From: Planctomycetota bacterium
GTDB lineage: Bacteria; Planctomycetota; MHYJ01; WSZJ01
Length of the DNA stretch: 64,000 bases
Assembly (NCBI GenBank): GCA_038060895.1
Contig: JBBTCT010000022.1
Location: 229,301-293,300 of the forward strand
Direction: 5' to 3'
Shown: positions 546 to 28,015 of the stretch, piece after piece
Position numbering within the stretch: the first letter of the stretch is position 1
Layout of the letters: each line of letters starts with the position of its first letter
Notes under the pieces: model-generated
What the model was told of the DNA's origin: nothing
The model's input: the letters and a program-made list of their open reading frames with translations, nothing else
The model's database searches: none
Made by a program: the position numbers and the translations under genes

Positions 546-2369
546 ATGAGTTCTGCTTCCTGCGCTTGGCAAGGCTCTGTCTCTTCCTTCCTGGAAACTT
601 CGGAGGAACGCGTCCTTTCCGATCTCACCGCGTTTCTGCGCGAAACCGGCGCGCCTCAGATCCTCGCCTGGGATCGCTCTCTCCGCGTCTTGCGAGACCA
701 GCTCCATACGTGTATGCCCGACGCCTCGAACTTCGCACTCGTCCTCGAATTCGAACTTCCGCGAAGCGGTGGCAGGCGCCCGGACTTGATCGTTCTGGAG
801 AACGGCCTCGTCCTCGTCATCGAATTCAAGAATCGCGTAACTGCGGAAGCGGCGGACCTCGCCCAGGTGAAGGGGTACGTGCGCGACCTCGAGGACTACC
901 ACGCCGCTTGCCGCGGCAAGACGCTCGTTCCGATCCTCGTGCCGATCGGGATGGAAGGGGAGCCCGAGGAGCGTGACGGCGTGCGCGTCGTCCCGTCGCG
1001 TCTGTTAGGCAGGGTGATTCGCGAGATCTCCAAAGGCGGCGAGGGGAAGCGCGGCGACGGGGAAGCGTTCGTTCTGGCACCATTTGAGCCTCTCCCCGCT
1101 CTTGTCGACGCCGCACGCCTACTATTCGAGCGCAAGCCTCTCCCTCGTATCAGAGCTGCCGAATCGGCACGCATCCCGGCGACGGTGGCCCGCCTCGAGC
1201 GGCTCGCTCGAGAAGTGCGCGGCACCGGAAGGCGGTCGCTCGCGCTTGTCTCGGGAGTGCCGGGAAGTGGCAAGACGCTTGTGGGTCTTCAACTGGTGCA
1301 CTCGCGCGACCTCGGTGTCCCGGCGGTGTTCCTCTCCGGAAACGGGCCGCTCGTCAACGTTCTCCAGTACGTCCTGGAGAACAAAGAGTTCGTGCGCGAC
1401 ATGAAGAAATTCATTCACGACCACCTCGTGCGTACGACCTCGGCGCCGCGGGAACACGTCGTTGTGTTCGACGAAGCGCAGCGAGCGTGGGACCGAGACC
1501 GTGTGCTCAAGAAGCATCGCGGGGCACTGGCGGACGGCGAGCCGGCTCTTCTCGCGAGGATTGCGACCAAGGTGAGCGACGGATTTGTGCTTGTCGCCCT
1601 GATCGGGACAGGGCAGGAGATCCATGAGGGAGAAGAAGGCGGGATTGCCCAGTGGGTGGGCGCGCTGAAAGAGGTCGGCGGGTGGGATGTGCTTGGACCC
1701 CCCGGGTACCGGGAGGAATTCGTGAAGGCCGGAATCGAATACACGGCGGATGACCTGCTTCATCTCACGGTAGCGCTTCGGAGTCACAGGGCGTCCGACA
1801 CGGCTCTGTGGGCCGGGCTCCTTCTTGAAGGTCGCCTGACCGAAGCGGCGAGCGTCGCTGCCGGCATGCGCGACAACAATTTCGAGATTCTCGGTTCACG
1901 ATCGCTGAACGCTCTTCGCGACTATGCGCGTGAGCGATACAGCAATGAGTCCGGAAAGAGGTTTGGGCTGGTGACTTCGTCGAGATTCCGAAATATCGAC
2001 GAGTACGGAGTGCGAACGCCACCCGCGAAATTCTTTCCGCATGGGCCGTGGTATGAGAGCCATCGTGACGATCCGAAATCCTGTTGTCGCCTCGAGGTCG
2101 CCGAAACGGAATTTGGATGCCAAGGACTGGAGCTAGACTTTCCGATCGTCTGCTGGGGACCGGACCTTGTCTGGCGCGGAGCTCACTGGGAAGTGGTGAT
2201 CAAGCGACGGAATCCCGACGTAAGGAATCCGGCCAAGCTGAGGCTCAACGCATACCGAGTCCTCCTGACGCGCGGCCGAGACGGCATGGCCGTGTTTGTG
2301 CCTCCTGGCCAAGCCGGAGACGCAACCTGGAGTGCACTCTTGGCGGGCGGGATCCGCGAACTGGCTTAG
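546..2369 (+). CDS. DUF2075-type protein: PD-(D/E)xK-like nuclease N-domain + P-loop NTPase + SF1-helicase-like C-terminus
   Basis: 607-aa ORF. 'RRPDLIVLENGLVLVIEFK' gives a D..ExK pattern. Walker A is 'GVPGSGKT' and a Walker B-like motif is 'VVVFDEAQRAW'. The C-terminal 'NAYRVLLTRGRDGMAVFV' is typical of this family. Confidence 0.85.
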   Translation: MSSASCAWQGSVSSFLETSEERVLSDLTAFLRETGAPQILAWDRSLRVLRDQLHTCMPDASNFALVLEFELPRSGGRRPDLIVLENGLVLVIEFKNRVTAEAADLAQVKGYVRDLEDYHAACRGKTLVPILVPIGMEGEPEERDGVRVVPSRLLGRVIREISKGGEGKRGDGEAFVLAPFEPLPALVDAARLLFERKPLPRIRAAESARIPATVARLERLAREVRGTGRRSLALVSGVPGSGKTLVGLQLVHSRDLGVPAVFLSGNGPLVNVLQYVLENKEFVRDMKKFIHDHLVRTTSAPREHVVVFDEAQRAWDRDRVLKKHRGALADGEPALLARIATKVSDGFVLVALIGTGQEIHEGEEGGIAQWVGALKEVGGWDVLGPPGYREEFVKAGIEYTADDLLHLTVALRSHRASDTALWAGLLLEGRLTEAASVAAGMRDNNFEILGSRSLNALRDYARERYSNESGKRFGLVTSSRFRNIDEYGVRTPPAKFFPHGPWYESHRDDPKSCCRLEVAETEFGCQGLELDFPIVCWGPDLVWRGAHWEVVIKRRNPDVRNPAKLRLNAYRVLLTRGRDGMAVFVPPGQAGDATWSALLAGGIRELA

Positions 2370-5816: not shown

Positions 5817-6965
5817 ATGGATCATAATGACATGAAACGATATGAGACGGACTTCGACGCCGCCCTGGCGTTCCTCCAGGTCAGCCGCTCCACCCTGAAC
5901 CGCTGGGTCCACGACGGCAAACTCCCCGCCCGAAAGGTCGGCGGCCAGTGGCGCTTCTCCGAAGAAGACCTCACCAGACTCCGCGACGGATCCGGGGAGC
6001 CCGCCCCGCTCGTCCGCGCTCGAGAAGAGCTGAAGACTTTCCTCGAATCCTCACGGGCCAACCGAAAGGGACCGAAAAACATGAACGCCATCGACACGAA
6101 ATCGCAGCCGCTCGCCGAAGCCCTGGTCTGGGAAGCGCACGACCGCAAGGCCTCCGAGCTGCACCTCCAGCCGAGGAAGGACGGCGTCCACATCTCCGTG
6201 GGCAAAGAAGCGCGGCTCGAGACGATCCGCGTCATTCCGGCGGACCTCGCGCGCGAACTCGAGCAGGCATGGGAAGAAATCGGGCTGCCGTTCGGCGACT
6301 CGGGCATCCGCCGGATCTTCCTCAGTCGCGCCGGGGACCAGGCCGTGAACGAAGTCTCCGTGCTACTCCAGGCCATCGACACCCTCCAGGGGCGCCGCGT
6401 CACGCTACGCTTCATGGGCGGCGGCCGCATCGCCGACCTCGATACCGTCGCGCCGAAAGCCGACGACCGCGCCGTCTTCGAGCGCTGGCTCAAGCGCCCC
6501 AACGGGATCATTCTCTTCTCGGGCCCGACCGGCTCCGGCAAGACGACGACGCTCCTCTCCTGCCTTCAGCATCTCGCGAAGGACGCCGGGCTGGCCGTCT
6601 TCAGCCTCGAGTACCCCGCTTATGTCCGCGTCGATGGCGTCGACCAGGTTGAGGTTCCGAGCGAAGACGGCCCGGTCGTCAAGGCCGCGCTCGAGCGCAT
6701 CATGAGGATGTATCCCAACGCGATCGGAATCTGCGTCGAGACCGAAGAAGCCGCCGCGGCCGCGCTGAACATGGCGATCACGGGGCATCTCGTGCTGATG
6801 CAGGTGCATGCAGAAGAGCACGAGGCGGCGGTGAAGCGCCTCGAGCAGCTCGCAGGCAGGCCGGTCGCGCCGTCCGTGATCGGGGTGATCTCGCAGCGGC
6901 TCAAGCGCGGCGACGCGGGCGGGAAGGTGGCTGAGTACCGCTTCTGGGAGCCTGGCGGGAGATAG
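5817..6965 (+). CDS. excisionase/MerR-type HTH fused to a GspE/PilB-like secretion ATPase core
   Basis: HTH is 'FLQVSRSTLNRWVHDGKLPARKVGGQWRFSEEDL'. Walker A is 'GPTGSGKTTT'. His-box-like motif is 'ITGHLVLMQVHA'. An alternative start is ATG 5832. Confidence 0.85.
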   Translation: MDHNDMKRYETDFDAALAFLQVSRSTLNRWVHDGKLPARKVGGQWRFSEEDLTRLRDGSGEPAPLVRAREELKTFLESSRANRKGPKNMNAIDTKSQPLAEALVWEAHDRKASELHLQPRKDGVHISVGKEARLETIRVIPADLARELEQAWEEIGLPFGDSGIRRIFLSRAGDQAVNEVSVLLQAIDTLQGRRVTLRFMGGGRIADLDTVAPKADDRAVFERWLKRPNGIILFSGPTGSGKTTTLLSCLQHLAKDAGLAVFSLEYPAYVRVDGVDQVEVPSEDGPVVKAALERIMRMYPNAIGICVETEEAAAAALNMAITGHLVLMQVHAEEHEAAVKRLEQLAGRPVAPSVIGVISQRLKRGDAGGKVAEYRFWEPGGR

Positions 6966-17793: not shown

Positions 17794-19158
17794 ATGCGCA
17801 TCACACTGCTGCTCCTGTTCCTGACCTCCACCGCGTTCGCCGATCGCTGGGGGGCATACGTGGAAAACCGCACGGTGTCCCCCAACGGAAAACACTACGT
17901 CGTCGCCAGAAGCCCCGAGTTCATGAAGCTCTCCTTCCAGATCTGCCGCCGCCGCGACGGTGTCGCGCCCCTTCTCCCGGCCGAGAATCCCGATCCCATC
18001 GATCGCGATTCCGAGGACAAGCTGCTGGCGGAAGGGCAGCTCGACTGGTGCCCGATTGCGATCCGGGTGCTGGACTCGGAGCCCTCGGCGGTGCTGTTCG
18101 AGAAGCACGGCGGAGTCGGGCGCGGAAACTCGCTGGCGCTGGTGGACGAGAAGGGACAGACGCGGTGGACGGTGCAGCTGGACGACCTCTTCACGGCGCA
18201 GGAGATCGAAAAGTTCATGCGCACGGTGTCGTCGATCTGGTGGTCGCAGGGGTGGTGGATTGACGAAAAGCGCGGAAAGGTCGTGGTCGTCGCGACCGGG
18301 GACGCGCTTCGCGAGGTTGACCTCAAGGACGGCAAGGTTTCGACGCCGCCGGCGAAGGTGCTGCTCCTGCGCGTGGAGGAAGGACCGGTGGCGGACCGGT
18401 GCCTGGCGCTTGAGGTGATGTCGCGGATACTGCCGGAGGGGATGACGCCGTGGGTCACGACGGTGGCGCAGGATGAGAAACAGCCGGTTGCGGTGCGGCT
18501 GCGCGCCGCGATTGCGTCGAAAAAGGCGGGTGAGGATCCGAGGGCGGGAGATCTTTTCCTGGCGGCGATCCCGAAGGGACAGCCGATCGACGAGCGGCGG
18601 TACGCAATCGGGCATCTCGGGGAGATTCTCGGTGAGAAGGCGATCCCTCACCTGCGTGAAGCGATGCGCGGGACTGCCGACGGGGCCTGGGGCTCGGCGC
18701 AGGAGGGTCTGGCGGCGTTCGGGGAGCACGCGGTGCCCGTGCTGATCGAGATGATGAAGGAAGTCAAGGAGACGCCGGACTACCGTGGAGGCGCGGCGCA
18801 CGTGCTGGCGAAGATCGGGGCGAGGTCGTCGGTGCCGGCGCTGGTCGAGACGATTTCGGACCCGGTTGAATACGTTGCGAATGCCGCGGCAAACGCGGCG
18901 ATCGCGATCGGGGCGCCGGATCTGGAGGAGAAGCTCGCCGCGATTCTGCTGAAGGGATCGACGCAGGACTCGCGCCTGGCCGGGTACTTCGAGGATCACC
19001 CGGGCGAGCGGGCGGTGGAAGCGCTCGTCGCGGCGCTAGGGCGGACGAAGCCGGATACGTACGACCGGCGGAGGGTGCTGCAAACGCTGAGGAAAATTAC
19101 GGGGAAGGATTTCGGTGAAGAGGCGGAGGATTGGAAGGCGGGGTTGAAAGGGAGGTAA
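17794..19158 (+). CDS. secreted HEAT-repeat protein
   Basis: Signal peptide 'MRITLLLLFLTSTAFA'. The C-terminal half holds HEAT-like repeats ('RLRAAIASKKAGEDPRA', 'RRYAIGHLGEILGEKAIPHL', 'GGAAHVLAKIGARSSVPALV'). Confidence 0.8.
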   Translation: MRITLLLLFLTSTAFADRWGAYVENRTVSPNGKHYVVARSPEFMKLSFQICRRRDGVAPLLPAENPDPIDRDSEDKLLAEGQLDWCPIAIRVLDSEPSAVLFEKHGGVGRGNSLALVDEKGQTRWTVQLDDLFTAQEIEKFMRTVSSIWWSQGWWIDEKRGKVVVVATGDALREVDLKDGKVSTPPAKVLLLRVEEGPVADRCLALEVMSRILPEGMTPWVTTVAQDEKQPVAVRLRAAIASKKAGEDPRAGDLFLAAIPKGQPIDERRYAIGHLGEILGEKAIPHLREAMRGTADGAWGSAQEGLAAFGEHAVPVLIEMMKEVKETPDYRGGAAHVLAKIGARSSVPALVETISDPVEYVANAAANAAIAIGAPDLEEKLAAILLKGSTQDSRLAGYFEDHPGERAVEALVAALGRTKPDTYDRRRVLQTLRKITGKDFGEEAEDWKAGLKGR

Positions 19159-19273: not shown

Positions 19274-21091
19274 TTACTTCGCTCCCAACGTCCTCGCCCG
19301 AACAAGGTAAACCCAGACCTCCCGCCCCTTCGCCCCGTTCCTTGTGACCGCCGAGGCCACGAACGCTCTCCCGTCCTGCAGATGCGCGTCGCATCCCAGC
19401 GACACGACCTCGCAGGTCGGCGTCTGCACGGCGCCCCCTGTCTCGGACTCGGTCTCCAGTGCCTCCGCCATCGAGGCTTCGGCCAGACCCGACTGAAGCT
19501 TCACCTGCAGCCGTCCCTCGGTGGCCTGGAGGACGCCGGCGTGGAGAAGGAAGCCGTCGTTCAGCGAATCGATGACGGGATCCCAGGCCTTGGCGCCCCA
19601 GGCGATTTCCACGTCGTGCTCCGCGACGAAATCGGCGTGGCGGCCGCGAAGCGAATGGAAAGGACTCCCGGTGCGGCCGAGCGCGGACGACTGGGCGACG
19701 AGGCGCGCGGTCCCTTTCTGCACGAGCCCGAGGATGTCGCCGAAAAGCGCGTCGGGGAGCCCGCCCGCCCGCTCCAGGACGTCGCGGCGGGCGAGCCACT
19801 CGGACTCGGGGAACGCGAGAAGCCACGACTCGGCCGCGAGGTTCGCGCCAAGGCGCAACTCCAGGTCGGTCAGCGTGCGCCGGATCTTGTCCTGCACTTC
19901 CGGCGGCGCGTGCACGACGAGGTCGTCGCCGATGATGGCGTAGCGGCAGCCGTCTTCGCTCCAGGTTTCTTCGCCGGTGCCGGCCTTGATCCGCTCGTCC
20001 AGTTCGTCGAGGTCCAGGCAGGTCGGATCGGGACCCGGGCCACATCGGATTCCCCCTCCGTTCTCGGGCGGATCGTTCAGCCCCAGATGGGGGGGCCTGC
20101 GATCGAACCAGGGGAGGCGCAGCAGAGCGCCGATGCTGTAGGCACGGAAGACCTCCGCGTTTCCCGCCCGCTCGGCGACGGCGTCGGAAGCGCCCTCGAC
20201 GCGTGCGCGCAGGAGGACGGCCGTGGTCCAGCCCGGAGTGAAGGGGCGGTAATCGGTCGCAGCGAGGAGGAGGGTCCGGCCCGGCTGAAGCGCGACGTAG
20301 GTGCGGATTTCCGTGGAATCCATGCGCGGAAGTTCGAGGCGTCCGCCGGACGCCGCCGGGAGTTTGAAATCGGCCAGCTCGGCCAGGCGCGCGGTCTGGA
20401 TCAGGAGCTCGAGGTGCAACAGGTCCTCGCCCGCCGAAAAATGCGGCCGCATCTCCAGGACCGCACCTTCCTGAAGTTCGTCCATGATCGGGTCGGCGAT
20501 CGCAGACTGCTGCGCAATCTCGATGTCGAAATCTCTCACATAGGTCTTCCGCCGGAGCGACGACGCAACCGCGTAGCGCCCCCCGCCCCCGCGGGCGACC
20601 AGCCGGTGCGCCACCCGGCCGCGCGCCTTGTCAGCCGCCGCGGCCCGAAGCCCCGCCGCCGCCGCTTCGTCCAGCAATCCCGGCGCAAGCCCGTCCGCAA
20701 CCCCGGGCGCCAATTCCACCATCTCCATCTCCACCACGATCGTCCGCGCCGCCCGCTTTTCGAGCAGCTCGAGCGCTGCGGCAATCGACTGAAGCACTTC
20801 CGGCCCCGCCGTCACGCGCAGCGTCCCGTTGGCGTACTCGAGCGTGTCCACGCCGCTGTCCCACGCGCCGGCATTCACGGTCTGGCCGAGGAGAAGCGCG
20901 ATGCTGTCTCCGGTGCCCTCCGTCTCGGGGGCCGCGCCCACCGGGGGCTCGTAAACGACAAAGCCGATCCGCGGCCCGCGCTTTTCGGGACGAGGGTCCG
21001 TCAGGGAGCGCAGATCCCACGTGCGGCGCTCCTGCGCGGAAGCGGCCGTTGCGAAGGCGAGGACGGCGAGGATGGCGATTGAGACCCGCAT
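19274..21091 (-). CDS. secreted protein with two secretin-like modules (paralogue 1)
   Basis: The start 'MRVSIAILAVLAFATAASA' (ATG 21091) overlaps the upstream stop as ATGA. Each module has a Secretin_N-like 'L.V.A.PEV...I...L..L' segment. That is followed by 'RDFDIEIAQQSAIADPIMDELQEGAVLEMRP' or 'EHDVEIAWGAKAWDPVIDSLNDGFLLHAGV'. Confidence 0.75.
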   Translation of the reverse strand: MRVSIAILAVLAFATAASAQERRTWDLRSLTDPRPEKRGPRIGFVVYEPPVGAAPETEGTGDSIALLLGQTVNAGAWDSGVDTLEYANGTLRVTAGPEVLQSIAAALELLEKRAARTIVVEMEMVELAPGVADGLAPGLLDEAAAAGLRAAAADKARGRVAHRLVARGGGGRYAVASSLRRKTYVRDFDIEIAQQSAIADPIMDELQEGAVLEMRPHFSAGEDLLHLELLIQTARLAELADFKLPAASGGRLELPRMDSTEIRTYVALQPGRTLLLAATDYRPFTPGWTTAVLLRARVEGASDAVAERAGNAEVFRAYSIGALLRLPWFDRRPPHLGLNDPPENGGGIRCGPGPDPTCLDLDELDERIKAGTGEETWSEDGCRYAIIGDDLVVHAPPEVQDKIRRTLTDLELRLGANLAAESWLLAFPESEWLARRDVLERAGGLPDALFGDILGLVQKGTARLVAQSSALGRTGSPFHSLRGRHADFVAEHDVEIAWGAKAWDPVIDSLNDGFLLHAGVLQATEGRLQVKLQSGLAEASMAEALETESETGGAVQTPTCEVVSLGCDAHLQDGRAFVASAVTRNGAKGREVWVYLVRARTLGAK

Positions 21092-22899
21092 CAGCGCACC
21101 TCCGGAAAGCGGACCCGGATGAGGAGAAGGAGCGTTTCGGCGGGGCCTTCGCGTCGCGCCTCCGTCACCGCCGTCCACTCGCCGGCCTTGACGGTCGAGT
21201 CCGTCCGGATTTCGAGCAGGTCGATCGTGGTCCGGTGGATGTCGCCGCCGTGCTCCGCCCCGGTTCCAAATGCTGCGATTTCCGAACGCCACCCGAACTG
21301 GCCCTGGAGTTCCACCCGCGCGCGCCCGCCAGCGTCGGCCGCAAAGGGCCTCACGTCAAGCAGGAGCCCTTCGCGCAGGACGTCGTTGACCGGGTCCGTC
21401 GCCGCCGCTTCCTGCGCAATCTCGACGTCGCGGTCGCGCACGAAGAGCGACTCGGCGCCCGCGAACGCGTGGACGCGCTGGCCGGTGAGCCCGAGAGCCG
21501 TCGCGCCTGCGACCACGCGCGCACGGTCGCCCTTGCGCGCCGCCGCGAGAACGTCCGCCGCCGGGAGGTCGCCGCGCTCCCTGCCCTCGAGGGCCACCAC
21601 GACCGCGTCCACCGCGACCCGCTTCAGCCGGAGTTCGGCCATTCCCTTGAGCGCCGCTTCCGTCGCTTCCAGGATCCCCTGCGGTGCGACGGCCATGATG
21701 CGGTCGTGCCTGAAGCGCAGTTCGCGGCCTTCCACCGACCAGGCGTCCTCCCCGCCGGCCGACTGGCGGAGCAGCGCCCCGAGAGTGTCGTCGTCGAGCC
21801 CGGGATTGCGCGGGTCTTCGATGAAGATGACGCCGCCCTGCTGTTCGTCCCAGTCCGAGAGGTCCAGCCGCTGCCCGGGGAAATCCGTCACGTTCCATTG
21901 GAGGGTGCCGGCCTCGAGGAAGCGCATCTTGAGATCGTCGAGGCCCGCCGCGAGATCGCCGAGGGGCTCTTCGACGCGCTTGGCGCGGACCAGCGCCACG
22001 AGCGTCCAGCCGTTCTCGATGCCTTCGACGCCGCCGGGGACGAGCAGGACGGTGCGCCCCGAAGGGCACGGCCACGTCCCGGCCGCGAACCAGGCCGCGC
22101 GCGAGGGGAGCTGGATCTTTCCCTCGGGTTTCGCCTTCGCGTCGAATTCGAGCACCGTGCCCGGGCGGGCGCACTGGAAGCGGTACTCCAGGAGGACCGT
22201 CGCGCCGTCGGGGGCGAGCACCGGCCGCACGTCGAGCACGGTCCCATCCAGCACTTTCTGCACGAACGGGTCGGCGACCGTGGCCGCCTGCGCAATTTCG
22301 ATGTCGTAGTCCACCACCAGTTGCCGCTCGCGCACGTCGGCCGCGTGAAACCGAAGCCCCGGCGCGCCGCCCGATCGCAGCACCGCCACTGTCCGCCCGC
22401 GCGTCCCGCCCGCCGCCGCTTCCCGCAACGACTGCTCCTGCGCATCCGTCACGACGCCCGCTTCGAGCCCGGCCGTTTCAAGCACCCCCGGCGCCAGCAG
22501 CATGACCTCCGCATCCACCACCACCCGGCGCGCGCCGATCCGCGCGAGCACGTTCAGGGCCGCGACGATCTTCTCCTGGGCCTGCTTCGTCTGCTTGACC
22601 GTCATCCACCCGTCGCCGGCGATGTCGAGCGACGCGTCCCCCGCTTCCCACGACTCCGGCTCGACCATCCGCTGGATCGCCCAGGTCAGCGTCTCGGCGT
22701 CGAAGGCGGCCACTTCCTCGTACTCCTCGCCGTTCTCAACGGCCGAAGTATCCGGAATGGTTTTCAGGCTCAGCCTCGGTCCCGGCTTCGAACTGCCCGT
22801 AGCCCGGAGCGCGCGGACGTCGTGCGTGCGCGTCACAAAGCCAGAGTCCTCGGCCCAGGCAAGTCCCGCGGCGAGGAAGAGGACGGCGATCGGTCGCAT
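21091..22899 (-). CDS. secreted protein with two secretin-like modules (paralogue 2)
   Basis: Start 'MRPIAVLFLAAGLAWA' (ATG 22899). Motifs are 'VDYDIEIAQAATVADPFVQKVLDGTVLDVRP' and 'RDRDVEIAQEAAATDPVNDVLREGLLLDVRP'. Colinear with paralogue 1. Confidence 0.75.
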   Translation of the reverse strand: MRPIAVLFLAAGLAWAEDSGFVTRTHDVRALRATGSSKPGPRLSLKTIPDTSAVENGEEYEEVAAFDAETLTWAIQRMVEPESWEAGDASLDIAGDGWMTVKQTKQAQEKIVAALNVLARIGARRVVVDAEVMLLAPGVLETAGLEAGVVTDAQEQSLREAAAGGTRGRTVAVLRSGGAPGLRFHAADVRERQLVVDYDIEIAQAATVADPFVQKVLDGTVLDVRPVLAPDGATVLLEYRFQCARPGTVLEFDAKAKPEGKIQLPSRAAWFAAGTWPCPSGRTVLLVPGGVEGIENGWTLVALVRAKRVEEPLGDLAAGLDDLKMRFLEAGTLQWNVTDFPGQRLDLSDWDEQQGGVIFIEDPRNPGLDDDTLGALLRQSAGGEDAWSVEGRELRFRHDRIMAVAPQGILEATEAALKGMAELRLKRVAVDAVVVALEGRERGDLPAADVLAAARKGDRARVVAGATALGLTGQRVHAFAGAESLFVRDRDVEIAQEAAATDPVNDVLREGLLLDVRPFAADAGGRARVELQGQFGWRSEIAAFGTGAEHGGDIHRTTIDLLEIRTDSTVKAGEWTAVTEARREGPAETLLLLIRVRFPEVR

Positions 22900-22990
22900 G
22901 AAGCGGTCTCCCGGGTGAATTGGCAGGGCGTCCCCCGGTGCATGAGACGGCCCGACGGGGGTGCGGGTCAAGCGCATTTCTGAAGTTCTG

Positions 22991-23030
22991 GGCTGGCATG
23001 GGCCGGCATGAGCTGGCGTTGGCTTAGTTC
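22991..23030. repeat. tandem 10-mers GGCTGGCATG GGCCGGCATG AGCTGGCGTT GGCTTAGTTC
   Basis: Read directly. Same family and orientation as the left arm at 32372-32432. Confidence 0.7.
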
Positions 23031-23228
23031 AGCAGGAAGACCAAGACCCGTACAGAGGGTGGGCTGAAACGCCAGTGACTCGGGGCCGGCCAGGGGACTA
23101 TACTCTGGTCGGGGGAGATTTTTCCGAGTGGACCGCTGCTTTGCGCTGAGATCGCTGGTGCGGGAGGGAGAAGTAATGAGCGACCTGCTCTGCGTTGGAC
23201 TTTCGAAACGCTCCGCCCCCTCTCGTGT

Positions 23229-23252
23229 GCAAGCAAGCAAGCAAGCAAGCAA
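23229..23252. repeat. tetranucleotide microsatellite (GCAA)x6
   Basis: Read directly: gcaagcaagcaagcaagcaagcaa. It lies in the divergent intergenic region between the secretin-like operon and the EBP gene. Confidence 0.95.
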
Positions 23253-23364
23253 GGTAACCCACCTCTCAGCGCTGTTTGCGCGCCGCCGAAAGTCGAGATG
23301 CGGAAGACCGCATGGACGCCAGATGTCGCTGTGCCTCCCAGTCTGAAGGTTTCAATGCCAAGTT

Positions 23365-24924
23365 TTGCCTGGTGCCTACGAGAGGAAATCGCCCATGGAA
23401 CGATTTGAGGCCGCACGTCGCGCACGCGCAGTTCTGCAAAATCTGGTCATCGCGGCGGCTCCGGCTGGTCAAATCCTGAATGCCACGCTTCGCGAGTGCC
23501 TCCTCCTGACTGGGGCGCGAACCGCGCTCTTCATTGGCGCCGCCGAGGTCCCAGAGCACCTTCGAAGCGTTCCCATGACCTTCGATGGACCGGGAAAGTG
23601 GCCGCCGCTTTCACCGAAACTGCTCGAAACGGTCATGCGTACGGCGAAGCCCTGGGTTCCCGTGGCAACGCCCGCGGATGGAAATGGCACTCCACCCCAC
23701 GTCTCCGAAGTGCTGTGCCTGGGCGATCGTTTCATGGGGGTCGCAGGGTTCATGCCCTGCTCGTTGGAAACTCTCGGTGAAGCGGGGCGTGAACTGCTCA
23801 CAGAGCTCCTACAGTCCATCGCCGAAGCTCTCTCCGCGGCCGTGTACCAGACGGCAATCGCCCGATTGGAGTCGGACCTGCGGCTTGCGAGAGTTGGCAA
23901 TGCCCTCACGCCGCTACCTCTCGTCGGCGGACCGACGAAGCTGCAGTCAAAGCGGCTGGTCGGCAATTCATCCCAGATGCGCGATTTGGACGGACGGATC
24001 GATCGTGCAGCCGCCACCGATGCAACGGTCCTGATCCAGGGGGAAACAGGAACGGGGAAGGAACTTGTCGCCCAGGAAATTCACGCCCGTTCGCCGCGGC
24101 GGCGGGGCCCGTTCGTCGATCAGCACATGGGAGCCTTGCCCGACGACCTGATCGAAGCGGTCATCATGGGGTACGTCAAGGACATCCACTCGCAAGCCCA
24201 CAAAGACAAGCCCGGCCAGTTCGAGCTAGCCGACAAGGGCACCTACTTCATGGACGAGGTCGGGCTGACCACCCTGATCGTGCAGGAGAAATTTCTGCGT
24301 GTTCTCCAGGAGCGAAAGGTCCGCCGCATCGGGTCGGAAGTGTCGTTCGATTTCGACACGCGCATCATTGCGGCGAGCAATCGCGATCTGCAGGAACTCG
24401 TCCGTGAAGGAAAAATGCGTGAGGACTTTTTCTACCGGCTCAAGGTCGTGACCATTCCCATCCCCCCGCTGCGTCACCATCTCGAGGACTTGCCGGCACT
24501 GTTCGAGTATTTCACCGAGCGCCTCGCCTGCAAGTGGAGCCTGCCCGCGCTTCGCGACCACAAATTCGATTCCGCCTGGGCCGCTCTCCTCGGGGGATGG
24601 TCGTGGCCCGGAAACGTTCGGGAACTTGAAAACACCGTTGAGGAGGTCGTAACGAATTCGGGAGGCGCGCCAAAGCTCGAGGAACTGGAAAAGATCATGG
24701 ACGCGAAGCGGAATGCGGCCGGGATCGAGGAGGCAGCGTCCGGCGAGCGGATTTCGCACGCCAAGCGGATGGAGAATGCCGAAGCGAACTTCCTGCGAAG
24801 CGACCTGCGCGAGAGCAACGGCAGCGTCCGCAAGGCGGCAGAGAAGAACGGCCTCTCGGAGCCGACCATGCGAAGGAAGGCAACCCGGTATCACCTCTCG
24901 ACTTCGTCAGGCGCTCAGAAATGA
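23365..24924 (+). CDS. sigma-54-interaction-domain (AAA+) transcriptional regulator, GAF-like N-terminus, Fis-type HTH; GAFTGA motif absent
   Basis: 'VLIQGETGTGKELVAQEIH', 'GTYFMDEVG', 'RIIAASNRDLQELVREGKMREDFFYRLKVVTIPIPPLR', 'WPGNVRELEN' and the HTH 'SVRKAAEKNGLSEPTMRRKATRY'. An alternative start is ATG 23395. Confidence 0.85.
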   Translation: MPGAYERKSPMERFEAARRARAVLQNLVIAAAPAGQILNATLRECLLLTGARTALFIGAAEVPEHLRSVPMTFDGPGKWPPLSPKLLETVMRTAKPWVPVATPADGNGTPPHVSEVLCLGDRFMGVAGFMPCSLETLGEAGRELLTELLQSIAEALSAAVYQTAIARLESDLRLARVGNALTPLPLVGGPTKLQSKRLVGNSSQMRDLDGRIDRAAATDATVLIQGETGTGKELVAQEIHARSPRRRGPFVDQHMGALPDDLIEAVIMGYVKDIHSQAHKDKPGQFELADKGTYFMDEVGLTTLIVQEKFLRVLQERKVRRIGSEVSFDFDTRIIAASNRDLQELVREGKMREDFFYRLKVVTIPIPPLRHHLEDLPALFEYFTERLACKWSLPALRDHKFDSAWAALLGGWSWPGNVRELENTVEEVVTNSGGAPKLEELEKIMDAKRNAAGIEEAASGERISHAKRMENAEANFLRSDLRESNGSVRKAAEKNGLSEPTMRRKATRYHLSTSSGAQK

Positions 24925-25081
24925 CGAAGCGCCGCTCATCTTTGACGAAACGCACTTCGTAAGTCGAAGCCCTGTGGTGCGCGAAACTTGTGTCGCGTGC
25001 CGCACCGGCCGGTTCCGTTGAATTCGTCAAGAGTGAGCGAGTGCCGGATCCTTTTCCGGATCCCGCCCCGGGGAATGTGAG

Positions 25082-25096
25082 TGGCCCGCGGCTTGC
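25082..25096 (+). promoter_or_regulatory. sigma-54-type -24/-12 promoter candidate TGGCCCG-N4-TTGC
   Basis: TGGCCCGCGGCTTGCG matches the consensus TGGCACG-N4-TTGCW, with GG and GC at the canonical spacing. It ends 13 nt before ATG 25110. Confidence 0.5.
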
Positions 25097-25109
25097 GATA
25101 AAGATTCGC

Positions 25110-25637
25110 ATGGGAGCCTGCTGCGGCGGATGCGATGAGGGCGCGAGTTGCGCTGGCAAACAGCCTGCGGCGGTTTTGCTGCCTCCGGACCTGATCATCC
25201 CGGGACCCGACCCGGATCGCACGGGAGTGCTTGAGCTGGAAGAAGTTCCGGATGAGACGACGAGCGATGAATCGGTCCCGCTGATCACGAAGTCGCTCGG
25301 CCCCACCCGGCCAGTCGCACTTAACACCCGTCTCGTCCTCACGGACGGCGGAACGACTGTCAGCGAAGCGCTGCACGTCCGGGGTTGCAACTCGGGTAGC
25401 GTCGACCTTGTCGTCTTCCTTCTGAATTCGATCTCGACCATAGACGCGGTCCTGGAGGGCGGAATCGACGGAGAAAACTACCGCCGGATTTCCTCGACGC
25501 GATTCAGCGCAGCCGGGTTTGCGAGGTTCCGATTTCGCCGGGTGGGTTACCGCTTTCTCCGAGTGTATTACAGCGCTTCCGGCTCGGCCGGTGGCGTCGC
25601 TGTCCTGACCACAACGATCAACGGTTCATCCAACTGA
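25110..25637 (+). CDS. cassette protein A: Cys-rich N-terminus, Pro/acidic linker, beta-rich C-domain
   Basis: 'MGACCGGCDEGASCAGKQ...'. The C-domain 'AVLEGGIDGENYRRI...YRFLRVYY' is paralogous to protein B. The track ORF extends to GTG 24990; the start chosen here follows the promoter candidate. Confidence 0.6.
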   Translation: MGACCGGCDEGASCAGKQPAAVLLPPDLIIPGPDPDRTGVLELEEVPDETTSDESVPLITKSLGPTRPVALNTRLVLTDGGTTVSEALHVRGCNSGSVDLVVFLLNSISTIDAVLEGGIDGENYRRISSTRFSAAGFARFRFRRVGYRFLRVYYSASGSAGGVAVLTTTINGSSN

Positions 25638-25656
25638 CCCCCAAAGGAGGACGTTC

Positions 25657-25980
25657 ATGGCCTATGCCAAGCTCTTTACAAACTTGTCCGTCGTCAACGG
25701 AGTTTCGCAGTACTCGCAACCGTTCAGTATGGCGGGGAACAACGCGTTCCGGTTCGGAGTGACGGTCTTCAGCAACTCCGCGACGAGTCTGACCTGTACG
25801 CCCCAAGGTTCCATCGACGGACAAAACTGGCGGGACCTCACCGCCGCAACCGGGCTCGTCGTCGGGTGGGCCTCGTTCACGCAAGGGAGCATCACCGACC
25901 TGATGGTGAGACTCGTCTGCACGGTCGTAGGAACCGGGACGATCGTCCTGGCCGCTGATGTGTACACGAGCCAGCAGTAG
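25657..25980 (+). CDS. cassette protein B: 107-aa beta-rich protein (possible major subunit)
   Basis: Strong SD (AAAGGAGG, 6 nt before the ATG). 'TPQGSIDGQNWRDLTAA...LMVRLVC' parallels protein A. A stable hairpin follows the gene. Confidence 0.7.
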   Translation: MAYAKLFTNLSVVNGVSQYSQPFSMAGNNAFRFGVTVFSNSATSLTCTPQGSIDGQNWRDLTAATGLVVGWASFTQGSITDLMVRLVCTVVGTGTIVLAADVYTSQQ

Positions 25981-26026
25981 GAACACGAAGAGTCGGAGCA
26001 GTCGCAACCCTCGGACCAGTCGGGGC

Positions 26027-26055
26027 GGAGGAGAGCCGTCGTCCGGCTCTCTTCC
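26027..26055 (+). other. intercistronic GC-rich hairpin (12-bp stem, 5-nt loop, no U-tract)
   Basis: GGAGGAGAGCCG tcgtc CGGCTCTCTTCC, read directly. It lies between cassette genes B and C. Confidence 0.6.
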
Positions 26056-26100
26056 GTCCGGCTTCCGAAATAAAAACATCGTCGTTACAAAGAGGTCGAA

Positions 26101-26667
26101 ATGCCCGAACTTCCGCTGACCTACGTCTACGAGCCGCCGAACTGGCTTGCGCGCGCGAACGCCTACGGCTCCTGCGTCGGCGGCCGGAGATTCTCCGTCG
26201 CGCATCAGACACCCGGGACGACCGTGACGGGGCAGACCTCCTTCGTGGCCACGACTCCCACGTTCCTGATCAACCAGGCGAGCGCCGCGCACCGCGTCGT
26301 GCTCTCGAACTTCGCGCTCTGCCAGATCGGGACGCCCGCGGGAGGGACGATCCACGTGGCGCTGGCGATCGACTCGTCGGATCGATACTCCTCAGGAGGG
26401 ACGTCGATCACCCCGCAGGCGACCGCGATGCCCAGTGCGCTCACCGCGGGCTTCAGTTTCCGGTTCAACCCGACCGCCGCCGCCGCCAGCGCCGTCCGGA
26501 TCCTGAACGAGTGGACCCAGCCCGCGTGGGCCGGTTCGATTTTCAATCCCGACCTGCATGACGGCGTCCTGATCGGATACACGGGTTCGATTCTGATCTA
26601 TACGTGGGCGGCCACGACGGCGCCGACGTGGATCATCGGCGGCTTCGACGTCCTGGAGGACGAGTAG
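26101..26667 (+). CDS. cassette protein C: 188-aa beta-rich protein
   Basis: SD 'AAGAGG' precedes the start. Ser/Thr/Ala/Gly-rich with alternating hydrophobic pattern ('VVLSNFALCQIG', 'ILIYTWAATTAPTWIIGGFDV'). The stop lies 1 nt before the gene D start. Confidence 0.7.
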   Translation: MPELPLTYVYEPPNWLARANAYGSCVGGRRFSVAHQTPGTTVTGQTSFVATTPTFLINQASAAHRVVLSNFALCQIGTPAGGTIHVALAIDSSDRYSSGGTSITPQATAMPSALTAGFSFRFNPTAAAASAVRILNEWTQPAWAGSIFNPDLHDGVLIGYTGSILIYTWAATTAPTWIIGGFDVLEDE

Positions 26668-26668
26668 G

Positions 26669-27553
26669 ATGCCGACGATCCGAGACCTGAGCCAGGGCGG
26701 CGTCCAGCCTCACGCCTCGACGCACATGTCGGGAGGTTCCGACGCGATCAAGCTCGACGAGCTCGCCGCGCCTACGGACGTCACGACGCTGAATGTCTCC
26801 ACTTCGGCTCACGGGCTGACGCCGAAGCTCCCGAACGATGCGACCAAATACCTCGACGGGACTGGCGCGTTCAGCGTCCCTGCGGGAAGCGGCGGCTCCG
26901 GCTCGTACCTCGGGACCACCGTGAAGACTTCCGGCACGACGTTCACGACCGGAGCCTCCACCAACACGATCCGTGTACGCCTTCAGGCCGGCGGCGGTGG
27001 AGGCGGCGGCGCTGCGTCGAATCTATTCAGCCCCGCCGGCGGCGGTGGCGCGGGCGGATACGCGGAAAAGACATTCGCCGTGAGCCCCTCGACCGCCTAC
27101 ACCTGCGCGATCGGCGCCGCAGGAGCCGGGGGCTCGGCAGGAAACAACAACGGCTCGGCCGGAGGGAACTCCACTTTCGCAGTCGGCGGAACGACCGTCA
27201 CAGCTTTCGGCGGCAATGGCGGAATCGGAACTGCCGGCGGAAGCGGCTCATCCGCGATCTTCGTTCTGGGGGGCGCTGCCGCATCCGTCTCCACGAGCGC
27301 CGACCTGAACGCAAGCGGCTCGCCGGGAGGGTTCGGGACAGGAAGTGGCGGCATTGGTGGTAGCGGCGCCTCGGGAGCCGGAGGTTCGTGCCTCTTCGGC
27401 GCCGGCGGAAACAGCCTCAATACCCAGAGCGGCGGCGCCGCGGGCGTCGGTTACGGCGCGGGCGGAAGCGGCGGCTGTTCGCTTTCCAGCGGCGGAAACG
27501 TTGCCGGCGGCGCAGGACTCGCCGGGGTGATCGTCGTCGAGGAGTTCTCGTAG
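26669..27553 (+). CDS. cassette protein D: phage-tail-fibre-like N-terminus + glycine-rich domain
   Basis: 'HASTHMSGGSDAIKLDELA...STSAHGLTPKLPNDATKYLDGTGAFS' is followed by a 'GGGGGGGAAS...GGGGAGGYAEK...GGNGGIG' glycine-rich domain. Confidence 0.8.
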   Translation: MPTIRDLSQGGVQPHASTHMSGGSDAIKLDELAAPTDVTTLNVSTSAHGLTPKLPNDATKYLDGTGAFSVPAGSGGSGSYLGTTVKTSGTTFTTGASTNTIRVRLQAGGGGGGGAASNLFSPAGGGGAGGYAEKTFAVSPSTAYTCAIGAAGAGGSAGNNNGSAGGNSTFAVGGTTVTAFGGNGGIGTAGGSGSSAIFVLGGAAASVSTSADLNASGSPGGFGTGSGGIGGSGASGAGGSCLFGAGGNSLNTQSGGAAGVGYGAGGSGGCSLSSGGNVAGGAGLAGVIVVEEFS

Positions 27554-27574
27554 CAAGATCGAGGAGATGAAGTC

Positions 27575-28015
27575 GTGAGCGGAAACGGCTGTTCCTTCTG
27601 GGCCCAGAACGTCTCCCCGGAGACGAGCTGGCCGATTTCCTCCGAAGCGCCGGCGGGGATGGACGGAATGTCCTGGTCGAGCGAGTGCGTCTGGGACGCG
27701 ATGTCCTTCCCGCAGGGAGTCCTGCAGGTCTCCGCGCCCGTCGAGATCCGGAACCCAAACAACACCGTGATCTTCTCCATCGTGATCATCGGCCAGAGCA
27801 GCGGGTCTCCTCAGCTCGCCATCGTATTCTCCGGCGCCAATTGTCCGGAGGGTCCCTACACCACGCTGAGCGGGCCGACCAACATCACGACCTTGGGCCT
27901 GCAGTTCCTAGGCGCCGTGACCGGAATCAGGTTCCCCTACGTCCGGGCAGAAGTCATGTCGTCGAACGGGAGTGCGGTGGCGGGGAGCGGGTGCTTTTGT
28001 GTCTCGGAAGCCTAA
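27575..28015 (+). CDS. cassette protein E: 146-aa beta-rich, Cys-containing protein
   Basis: GTG start with SD 'GAGGAG' 9 nt upstream. 'VIFSIVIIGQSSGSPQLAIVFSG...IRFPYVRAEV' is the same style as A and B. Confidence 0.65.
   Translation: MSGNGCSFWAQNVSPETSWPISSEAPAGMDGMSWSSECVWDAMSFPQGVLQVSAPVEIRNPNNTVIFSIVIIGQSSGSPQLAIVFSGANCPEGPYTTLSGPTNITTLGLQFLGAVTGIRFPYVRAEVMSSNGSAVAGSGCFCVSEA

Follow-up and report, generated by a model that had tools for sequence, protein, structure and literature searches.

Gene pair and encoded proteins

Two adjacent genes on the minus strand of a 64,000-nucleotide (nt) stretch of Planctomycetota DNA (contig JBBTCT010000022.1, assembly GCA_038060895.1) encode a pair of secreted paralogues, termed here A and B, each of which was found to contain two secretin-like modules. 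The whole stretch is referred to as the window, and all positions follow its numbering. The products are 100% identical to the NCBI entries AAB074_15650 (A) and AAB074_15645 (B), both annotated as 'hypothetical protein' of a Planctomycetota metagenome-assembled genome (MAG). The pair and its start signals, the latter and the signal peptides being read from the sequence, are arranged as follows.

21091-22899, minus strand: gene A, 602 amino acids (aa), secreted, two secretin-like modules, upstream member of the pair; ATG at 22899, stop codon at 21093-21091
19274-21091, minus strand: gene B, 605 aa, secreted, paralogous to A and likewise of two modules, downstream member of the pair; ATG at 21091-21089, stop codon at 19274
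22907-22912, minus strand: Shine-Dalgarno-like GGGAGA of A, 7 nt before the ATG of A
21099-21103, minus strand: Shine-Dalgarno sequence GGAGG of B, within the 3' end of A and 7 nt before the ATG of B
21089-21093, minus strand: stop/start junction TGATG, in which the stop of A (21093-21091) and the start of B (21091-21089) share one base
22852-22899, minus strand: signal peptide of A, MRPIAVLFLAAGLAWA then ED; the sole strongly hydrophobic window of A
21035-21091, minus strand: signal peptide of B, MRVSIAILAVLAFATAASA then QE; the hydropathy maximum lies at the N-terminus

A sequence-only reading of this locus had described two adjacent paralogues with signal peptides, and both the open reading frames and the paralogy are confirmed: A and B share 30.6% identity across 594 aa (E 3e-49). 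The same reading gave the overlap of the two genes as ATGA at 21091, which has to be corrected, since the letters at the junction are ...CGC TGA TGC GGG... and the overlap is a single nucleotide within TGATG. The homologous pairs at loci L002, L005, L007 and L009 likewise show a 1-nt overlap or a 0-nt gap.

To judge from their sequences, the leaders of A and B are typical Sec signal peptides, and both proteins are predicted to be Sec-exported. In the AlphaFold2 (AF2) model of A the signal peptide appears as a low-confidence helix. A hydropathy scan of both proteins revealed no transmembrane or hydrophobic segment beyond the signal peptide, neither protein has a lipobox, and the mature proteins are acidic, with an isoelectric point of about 5. 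Anchoring as lipoproteins was considered and rejected, because such lipobox-like matches as occur are cysteines inside signal-peptide h-regions, ahead of AXA sites.

Internal duplication

A and B together comprise four modules of ~290 aa in 3.6 kb.

21964-22845, minus strand: module A1 (aa 19-312), a βαββα N-domain and then a secretin core in trimmed form
21094-21945, minus strand: module A2 (aa 319-602), a second N-domain and trimmed secretin core, based on half comparison, BLASTP, alignment and the AF2 model
20156-21034, minus strand: module B1 (aa 20-312), based on half comparison, an NCBIfam N-domain match and alignment
19277-20137, minus strand: module B2 (aa 319-605), based on half comparison and alignment

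Each protein was cut near residue 320 and the halves were compared with one another. The halves of A matched with an E value of 9e-12 (A_N/A_C), those of B with 5e-9 (B_N/B_C), and the C-terminal half of A matched the N-terminal half of B with 1e-15 (A_C/B_N). Over all, these half-versus-half comparisons ranged from 5e-9 to 1e-15, with Smith-Waterman z scores of 14-22 against 200 shuffles, so that the internal repeats, which the sequence-only reading had proposed to be checked by self-alignment, are statistically solid. The best partner of an N-terminal half was the N-terminal half of the other protein (E 5e-30), and that of a C-terminal half was the other C-terminal half (E 4e-23). The internal duplication therefore predates the gene duplication that gave rise to A and B.

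Secretin homology and predicted fold

The modules are not recognized by the standard domain databases. Neither A nor B gave any Pfam match even at E≤10, and the gathering thresholds of PF00263 and PF03958 were not reached. In NCBIfam, residues 69-127 of B matched the model TIGR02520 of the PilN type IVb pilus secretin (E 6e-6); this segment matches the N-domain part of two secretin models, PilN and MshL, in each case sub-threshold, the scores being far under the cutoffs (25 bits vs 288).

Clear homology emerged from direct comparison with Planctomycetota proteins. A phmmer search with A retrieved about 40 Planctomycetota proteins of ~870 aa that combine tetratricopeptide repeats (TPR) with PF00263 (E 3e-14 to 1e-8) and that are termed TPR-secretins below. 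BLASTP of A against PF00263 secretins gave an E value of 2e-14 and extended, in both modules, over N-domain and secretin core: A 20-146 aligned with the last N-domain of a TPR-secretin, and A 195-292 and A 443-521 fell within PF00263. Module A1 aligns end to end with residues ~456-850 of the TPR-secretins, the order of its elements being taken from the AF2 model. When the family alignment was compared by hhalign with an alignment of 18 TPR-secretins, a probability of 99.8% and an E value of 6e-29 over 259 columns were obtained. A family profile searched against PDB sequences identified the type IVb pilus secretin BfpB (E 4.5e-10), which was matched in separate stretches, namely, the N3 domain and the secretin core. 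The same search with a single sequence had yielded a chance match only, which was discarded.

The AF2 model of A, computed from a 19-sequence family alignment, has a mean pLDDT (predicted local distance difference test) of 85.7 and a pTM (predicted template modelling score) of 0.85. Foldseek comparison of this model with the PDB returned secretins as all 39 best matches, so that no alternative fold came forward. The secretin-domain core is present as two stacked β-sheets, corresponding to the outer and inner barrel walls, and is directly preceded by a βαββα ring-building N-domain of the N1-N3 or Secretin_N type. The segment that had been noticed as Secretin_N-like in the sequence-only reading is part of this N-domain and comprises its second β-strand, its second helix and the first barrel strand. 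By fold as well as by homology, A and B are members of the secretin superfamily, and on sequence grounds each module descends from the C-terminal half of Planctomycetota TPR-secretins.

Conserved Gate-1-like hairpin

A conserved block, which had been suspected to be an element of the secretin core, occurs in all four modules as a D(I/V)EIA...DP...G motif and probably represents the Gate-1 hairpin of the inner barrel.

22210-22311, minus strand: Gate-1-like block of A1, DYDIEIAQAATVADPFVQKVLDGTVLDVRP..., aa 197-230; 42% identical to the block within PF00263 of the TPR-secretin P0022
21334-21435, minus strand: Gate-1-like block of A2, DRDVEIAQEAAATDPVNDVLREGLLLDVRP..., aa 489-522, located by the motif positions
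20432-20533, minus strand: Gate-1-like block of B1, DFDIEIAQQSAIADPIMDELQEGAVLEMRP..., aa 187-220, located by the motif position
19520-19621, minus strand: Gate-1-like block of B2, EHDVEIAWGAKAWDPVIDSLNDGFLLHAGV..., aa 491-524, the most diverged copy

In the AF2 model the A1 block is a 45-residue β-hairpin, A 184-228, made of strands E184-203 and E206-228 with IAQ at its tip. Alignment to BfpB and to the TPR-secretins assigns this hairpin as Gate 1 of the inner barrel. All residues that are invariant in the family, namely, D197, P211, G219, A495, P503 and G511, are located in the two hairpin copies of A. The distal glycine is present in four of the four modules, the proximal one only in the second modules, where the bracketing glycines are 31 residues apart, counted inclusively (G481/G511 in A2 and G483/G513 in B2). 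The hinge glycines of Gate 1 in the phage protein pIV are G267 and G297 (PMC8563730), and the spacing in A2 and B2 equals that of pIV.

Absence of the β-lip and the amphipathic helical loop

When 12 modules were aligned by MAFFT with three bona fide secretins, of which the C-terminal halves were used, the result was collinear save for a few indels of 1-4 residues and two clean gaps that are common to every module. The first gap, of ~95 aa, directly follows the first barrel strand (GVDFRGLG...GGLQFQWTYL in secretins) and corresponds to the position of the β-lip. The second, of ~25 aa (GVPILNKIPIISFFFERQG), lies just ahead of the last strand, covers GVPILNKIPIISFFF and corresponds to the amphipathic helical loop (AHL), the most conserved element of secretins, which touches the inner leaflet. 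Its consensus is vP.L..iP.lG.lF, and this region is the stretch in which every solved secretin matches the TPR-secretin profile (positions 785-860). The motif pattern was found in 0 of 166 two-module family members vs 29 of 41 TPR-secretins. The failure of PF00263 to detect A and B is explained by the loss of this region. An S-domain is also absent, as the last barrel strand ends the chains.

The β-lip and the AHL are the sole hydrophobic, membrane-inserted parts of secretins, and the AHL is found in all solved secretins (PMC6532946; PMC10499894). The β-lip comprises 36-80 aa and follows the first outer-barrel strand (PMC8563730; position and size also in PMC6532946). In pIV, an unresolved lip of 36 residues comes after the strand that contains F184-F196, and the lip measures 51-60 residues in the secretins of type II secretion systems (T2SS) and about 80 in cap-gate types (PMC8563730).

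Because the membrane-embedded elements are deleted in all four modules, a self-sufficient outer-membrane channel is unlikely. This bears on the possibility that A and B make up a true secretin channel across the outer membrane, part of an unrecognized export or uptake machine and inserted by other means. The retained secretin fold and Gate-1-like hairpin, the signal peptides and a further hairpin, the counterpart of the second two lip strands, are what such a channel would have, and the nearest relatives are real PF00263 secretins. However, the β-lip and the AHL are absent in four of four modules, the AHL motif is missing throughout the sampled family, and these elements have been described as the only membrane-embedded parts, the AHL being universal among solved secretins (PMC6532946). 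Neither an S-domain nor a lipobox nor a pilotin-like neighbour was found, and genes for an inner-membrane platform or ATPase are adjacent at none of the nine pair loci. We therefore regard such a channel as unlikely. The sequence-only reading had proposed an outer-membrane channel or plug; the first part of this proposal is weakened by the deletions, whereas a plug or periplasmic ring fits better.

A further family member was observed in a MAG of Candidatus Kuenenia stuttgartiensis (L018, 7667-10615). This protein, of 982 aa, has an N-terminal extension of ~400 aa followed by two modules. Its last module scores 36.5 bits with PF00263 (cutoff 27.5), the match being limited to model positions 2-116 of 169. 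In form the protein stands between the secretins and the lip-less family.

Family size, distribution and pairing

Searching the family profile against 1.84 billion cluster representatives identified 431 at E≤1e-30, mostly of 570-650 aa, which correspond to hundreds of clusters at 50% identity. Two modules were clearly detectable in 133 of 166 sampled members. All named members and all of 44 loci, on one-genome-per-species contigs, belong to Planctomycetota, including Candidatus Kuenenia. The A/B family is a large, unannotated, tandem secretin variant without lip and AHL that has so far been seen only in Planctomycetota.

These numbers argue against A and B being decaying, functionless remnants of a secretin gene, as might be supposed from the missing essential elements and the lack of a Pfam match. 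The reading frames are intact, the motifs are invariant, and gene order and stop/start coupling are conserved. The 431 clusters share the same two-module length, and the deletions are the same in all modules, which indicates that they are ancient and maintained. Decay is thus hardly credible.

Adjacent pairs were found in a search for related loci that used nine A-type sequences. There are nine such loci in seven MAGs, two of which carry two pairs each, and the order is always A-type then B-type with a 1-nt overlap or no gap. The family is usually encoded as A-then-B pairs with tight stop/start coupling.

Other arrangements also occur. In three clusters (P0201, P0213 and P0214), four modules are contained in a single chain of 1088-1115 aa, encoded by genes without a partner gene. 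The halves of P0201 are 31% identical to each other and are nearer to each other than to A or B; since the halves of the four-module chain are nearest each other, an independent doubling took place. For the same reason, a Rosetta-stone origin of P0201, by fusion of A and B, was rejected. The genes for P0201 and P0214 (L054, 8001-11267, and L055, 8001-11348) were both seen to be divergent from a gene pair encoding Peptidase_S8 and Asp_protease_2 proteins.

The arrangements also bear on the question of whether A and B form rings at all. The two modules of a chain might instead pair as a closed, soluble β-sandwich with a binding or scaffolding function in the periplasm, for example as a ligand of the HEAT domain of an anti-sigma factor. 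This would agree with the monomer model of A, which is predicted with confidence to be one rigid body (pTM 0.85), and with the existence of single-gene two-module members (L021, L026, L032 and L049). However, the open edges of secretin sheets drive oligomerization, the N-domain is a ring-building motif, and the A-B pairing together with the separate four-module single chains suggests units of more than two modules. A non-ring architecture is accordingly considered quite improbable.

Comparison with known secretins

The closest sequence relatives of A and B are the TPR-secretins (~870 aa; a TPR N-terminus, an N-domain and PF00263; e.g., P0022, P0042 and P0054). The modules and the TPR-secretins have in common the 'YDVRDL' first strand and the DFDVEIAQAASIADP gate block. 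TPR-secretins have one secretin domain per chain and a long TPR N-terminus, whereas A and B have two modules per chain. Furthermore, TPR-secretins retain both the β-lip segment of ~95 aa and the AHL (GVPILNKIPIISFFF) and pass the Pfam threshold; A and B do neither.

The relationship raises the alternative that A and B are accessories of a full-length TPR-secretin, acting as a plug, cap or assembly factor that is stacked under it or intercalated through near-identical Gate-1 and N-domain surfaces. The Gate-1 block and its TPR-secretin counterpart share 42% identity, Planctomycetota genomes carry TPR-secretins, often two per locus, and the loss of the membrane parts fits a periplasmic partner. 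Yet the pair never adjoins a TPR-secretin at the loci examined, and a lip-less subunit within the ring would leave a gap in the membrane belt. We judge this role to be fairly improbable.

At the one TPR-secretin locus whose neighbours were examined, a JGI metagenome contig found via P0042 (L056, 1-22625), an operon encodes a TPR-secretin, a 989-aa TPR protein, a 409-aa protein, MotA/ExbB, two ExbD proteins and a second TPR-secretin. Among L020, L022, L023, L025 and L027, several hold two TPR-secretins 0.5-8 kb apart. A pair of secretins coupled to an ExbBD motor, and not to a T2SS or type IV pilus (T4P), is unusual, and a literature search retrieved no paper linking secretin, ExbD and Planctomycetes.

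The solved secretins include GspD/XcpQ/PulD (T2SS), InvG (type III secretion system, T3SS), PilQ (type IVa pilus), BfpB (type IVb pilus), RcpA (Tad) and pIV (phage f1). Their Gate-1 hairpin with its hinge glycine or glycines has a likely counterpart in A and B, where the spacing in the second modules is pIV-like. A canonical secretin ring consists of 12-17 identical subunits. Solved secretins are homo-oligomers with one secretin domain per chain; A and B have two cores per chain and form two paralogous chains. The solved secretins all have an outer-membrane-embedded β-lip and an AHL, both of which are lacking in the A/B modules. Most of them have an N0 and further N domains, and many an S-domain and a pilotin, which is not so in A and B. 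Their genes accompany those of an assembly machine (T2SS, T3SS, T4P, Tad or phage), which is not the case for A and B. In total, A and B depart from canonical secretins in five features: the β-lip, the AHL, the single-domain homo-oligomer, the association with a machine and the database thresholds. To our knowledge, the secretins studied to date are without exception homo-oligomers whose chains each contain one pore domain, and in the literature that could be searched, no paper on tandem or duplicated secretin domains was found.

Genomic neighbourhood and regulation

No T2SS, T4P, T3SS or Tad gene was found within ±10 kb of the pair in the window, nor at the annotated pair loci L002-L009, and no pilotin-like gene is among the neighbours of the pair. 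The remark that secretion, pilus and injectisome genes are not adjacent thus holds for the window and extends to these annotated pair loci. The only T2SSE-type ATPase of the window (5817-6962, plus strand) is a 382-aa protein in which an N-terminal, excisionase-like HTH_17 domain is fused to the ATPase; it lies 12 kb from the pair and is isolated from secretion or pilus genes.

A second type of pair was identified as the distal half of a four-gene operon that consists of an extracytoplasmic function (ECF) sigma factor, a zinc-finger HEAT anti-sigma-like protein, an A-type and a B-type gene. This operon is present in five genomes (L007 and L011-L015; 1673-7531 in L007). The same ECF and HEAT/zf-HC2 genes lie upstream of distant single-gene members (L032, 409-4828, and L049, 7147-11482), so that the arrangement spans three divergent subfamilies, with zf-HC2/HEAT proteins of 539-638 aa. 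By analogy, these operons of sister lineages suggest a role in envelope stress or cell-surface signalling. There is a functional analogy, and only that, to FecI-FecR-FecA signalling, as the sister-subfamily operons encode an ECF sigma factor, a membrane anti-sigma factor with a periplasmic domain and a secreted envelope protein. The Fec system employs a TonB-dependent barrel and a FecR domain, whereas the sister subfamilies employ a secretin derivative and a HEAT-repeat periplasmic domain, and the Fec-like operon logic is not found at the window's own locus.

In the window, gene B is convergent with a HEAT_2 gene (17794-19158, plus strand; 454 aa, with a signal peptide) at a distance of 115 nt, and on the other side of the pair lies a block at 23395-28015 that comprises a divergent sigma-54 activator (509 aa, its N-terminal ~187 aa without a Pfam domain) and five small unannotated genes at 24990-28015, one of which encodes a Gly_rich_2 protein (26669-27553). 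Both neighbours had been noted in the sequence-only reading and are indeed present at the locus, but they are not conserved at homologous pairs. That the HEAT protein is a conserved partner was rejected as unproven, since comparison with the anti-sigma HEAT proteins showed no specific similarity and the close orthologues of the pair have no adjacent HEAT gene. The activator and the five small genes look like a lineage-specific insertion: they do not occur at L002 or L009, which are syntenic and encode, upstream of the pair, a Ser/Thr kinase of 950 aa that also carries an FGE-sulfatase domain. A search for a sigma-54 promoter upstream of A gave no match in 22900-23400, and matches window-wide were no more than expected by chance. 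Control of the pair by the divergent activator was rejected on account of the lack of such a promoter and the absence of the activator from the syntenic loci.

Elsewhere, the window encodes a Schlafen group-3-like helicase (546-2366, plus strand; E 4e-60), an IS1595-family transposase, a Phd/YefM antitoxin, PPK2, a GGDEF protein and two Ser/Thr kinases. Three window proteins have FGE-sulfatase domains.

Proposed model

The reading that we favour, and to which we give an even chance, is that A and B form a periplasmic, heteromeric and pseudo-symmetric gated ring or plug. The two proteins would be made in a 1:1 ratio and would co-assemble edge to edge in the periplasm, in the manner of secretin protomers, to give a pseudo-symmetric ring with a double-walled β-barrel. 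Each chain would supply two protomer equivalents and each A-B unit four, and the conserved Gate-1 hairpins would face into the lumen. Lacking the sole elements by which secretins sit in the membrane, the ring would not span the outer membrane by itself; it would either be periplasmic or depend on a partner for membrane contact. It may be a periplasmic gated chamber or plug that acts together with another envelope component. In sister lineages, secretin-like proteins would be the cargo genes of an ECF sigma/HEAT anti-sigma operon and may take part in envelope-stress or cell-surface signalling.

Several points weigh against this proposal. Ring formation, heteromeric composition and stoichiometry are what we infer throughout, and the AF2 model of the four-module protein P0201 is of low confidence (pLDDT 54.7, pTM 0.51). 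The hairpin that provides the other two lip strands of secretins is kept, which leaves room for some outer-membrane contact or anchoring by a partner. We found no substrate or partner machine for A and B. The regulatory link to ECF and anti-sigma factors is borrowed by analogy from paralogous subfamilies, as no ECF or anti-sigma gene neighbours the pair in the window or its close orthologues L002, L005 and L009.

A further-reaching proposal is that such a heteromeric, non-piercing periplasmic barrel represents a new architectural class, which might function as a gated chamber or partner in ECF signalling, or in an ExbBD-energized trans-envelope transport related to the TPR-secretin/ExbBD clusters. 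This is put forward tentatively and is considered rather doubtful.

Implications

Planctomycetota are known as a phylum in which cell envelopes are unusual and macromolecules are taken up. The link to ECF and anti-sigma factors, together with the ExbBD context of the nearest relatives, may lead to an unexplored part of envelope physiology, and a family profile would annotate many 'hypothetical' Planctomycetota proteins that are invisible to Pfam and NCBIfam. The family departs from all the known rules of secretins at once, yet it keeps the gate hairpin and the ring-building domain. If rings are formed, a secretin barrel could exist in the periplasm independently of a membrane and could be made of protomers that are fused and differ from one another, and the family would offer a natural way to tell what the lip and AHL do for assembly from what they do for membrane insertion.

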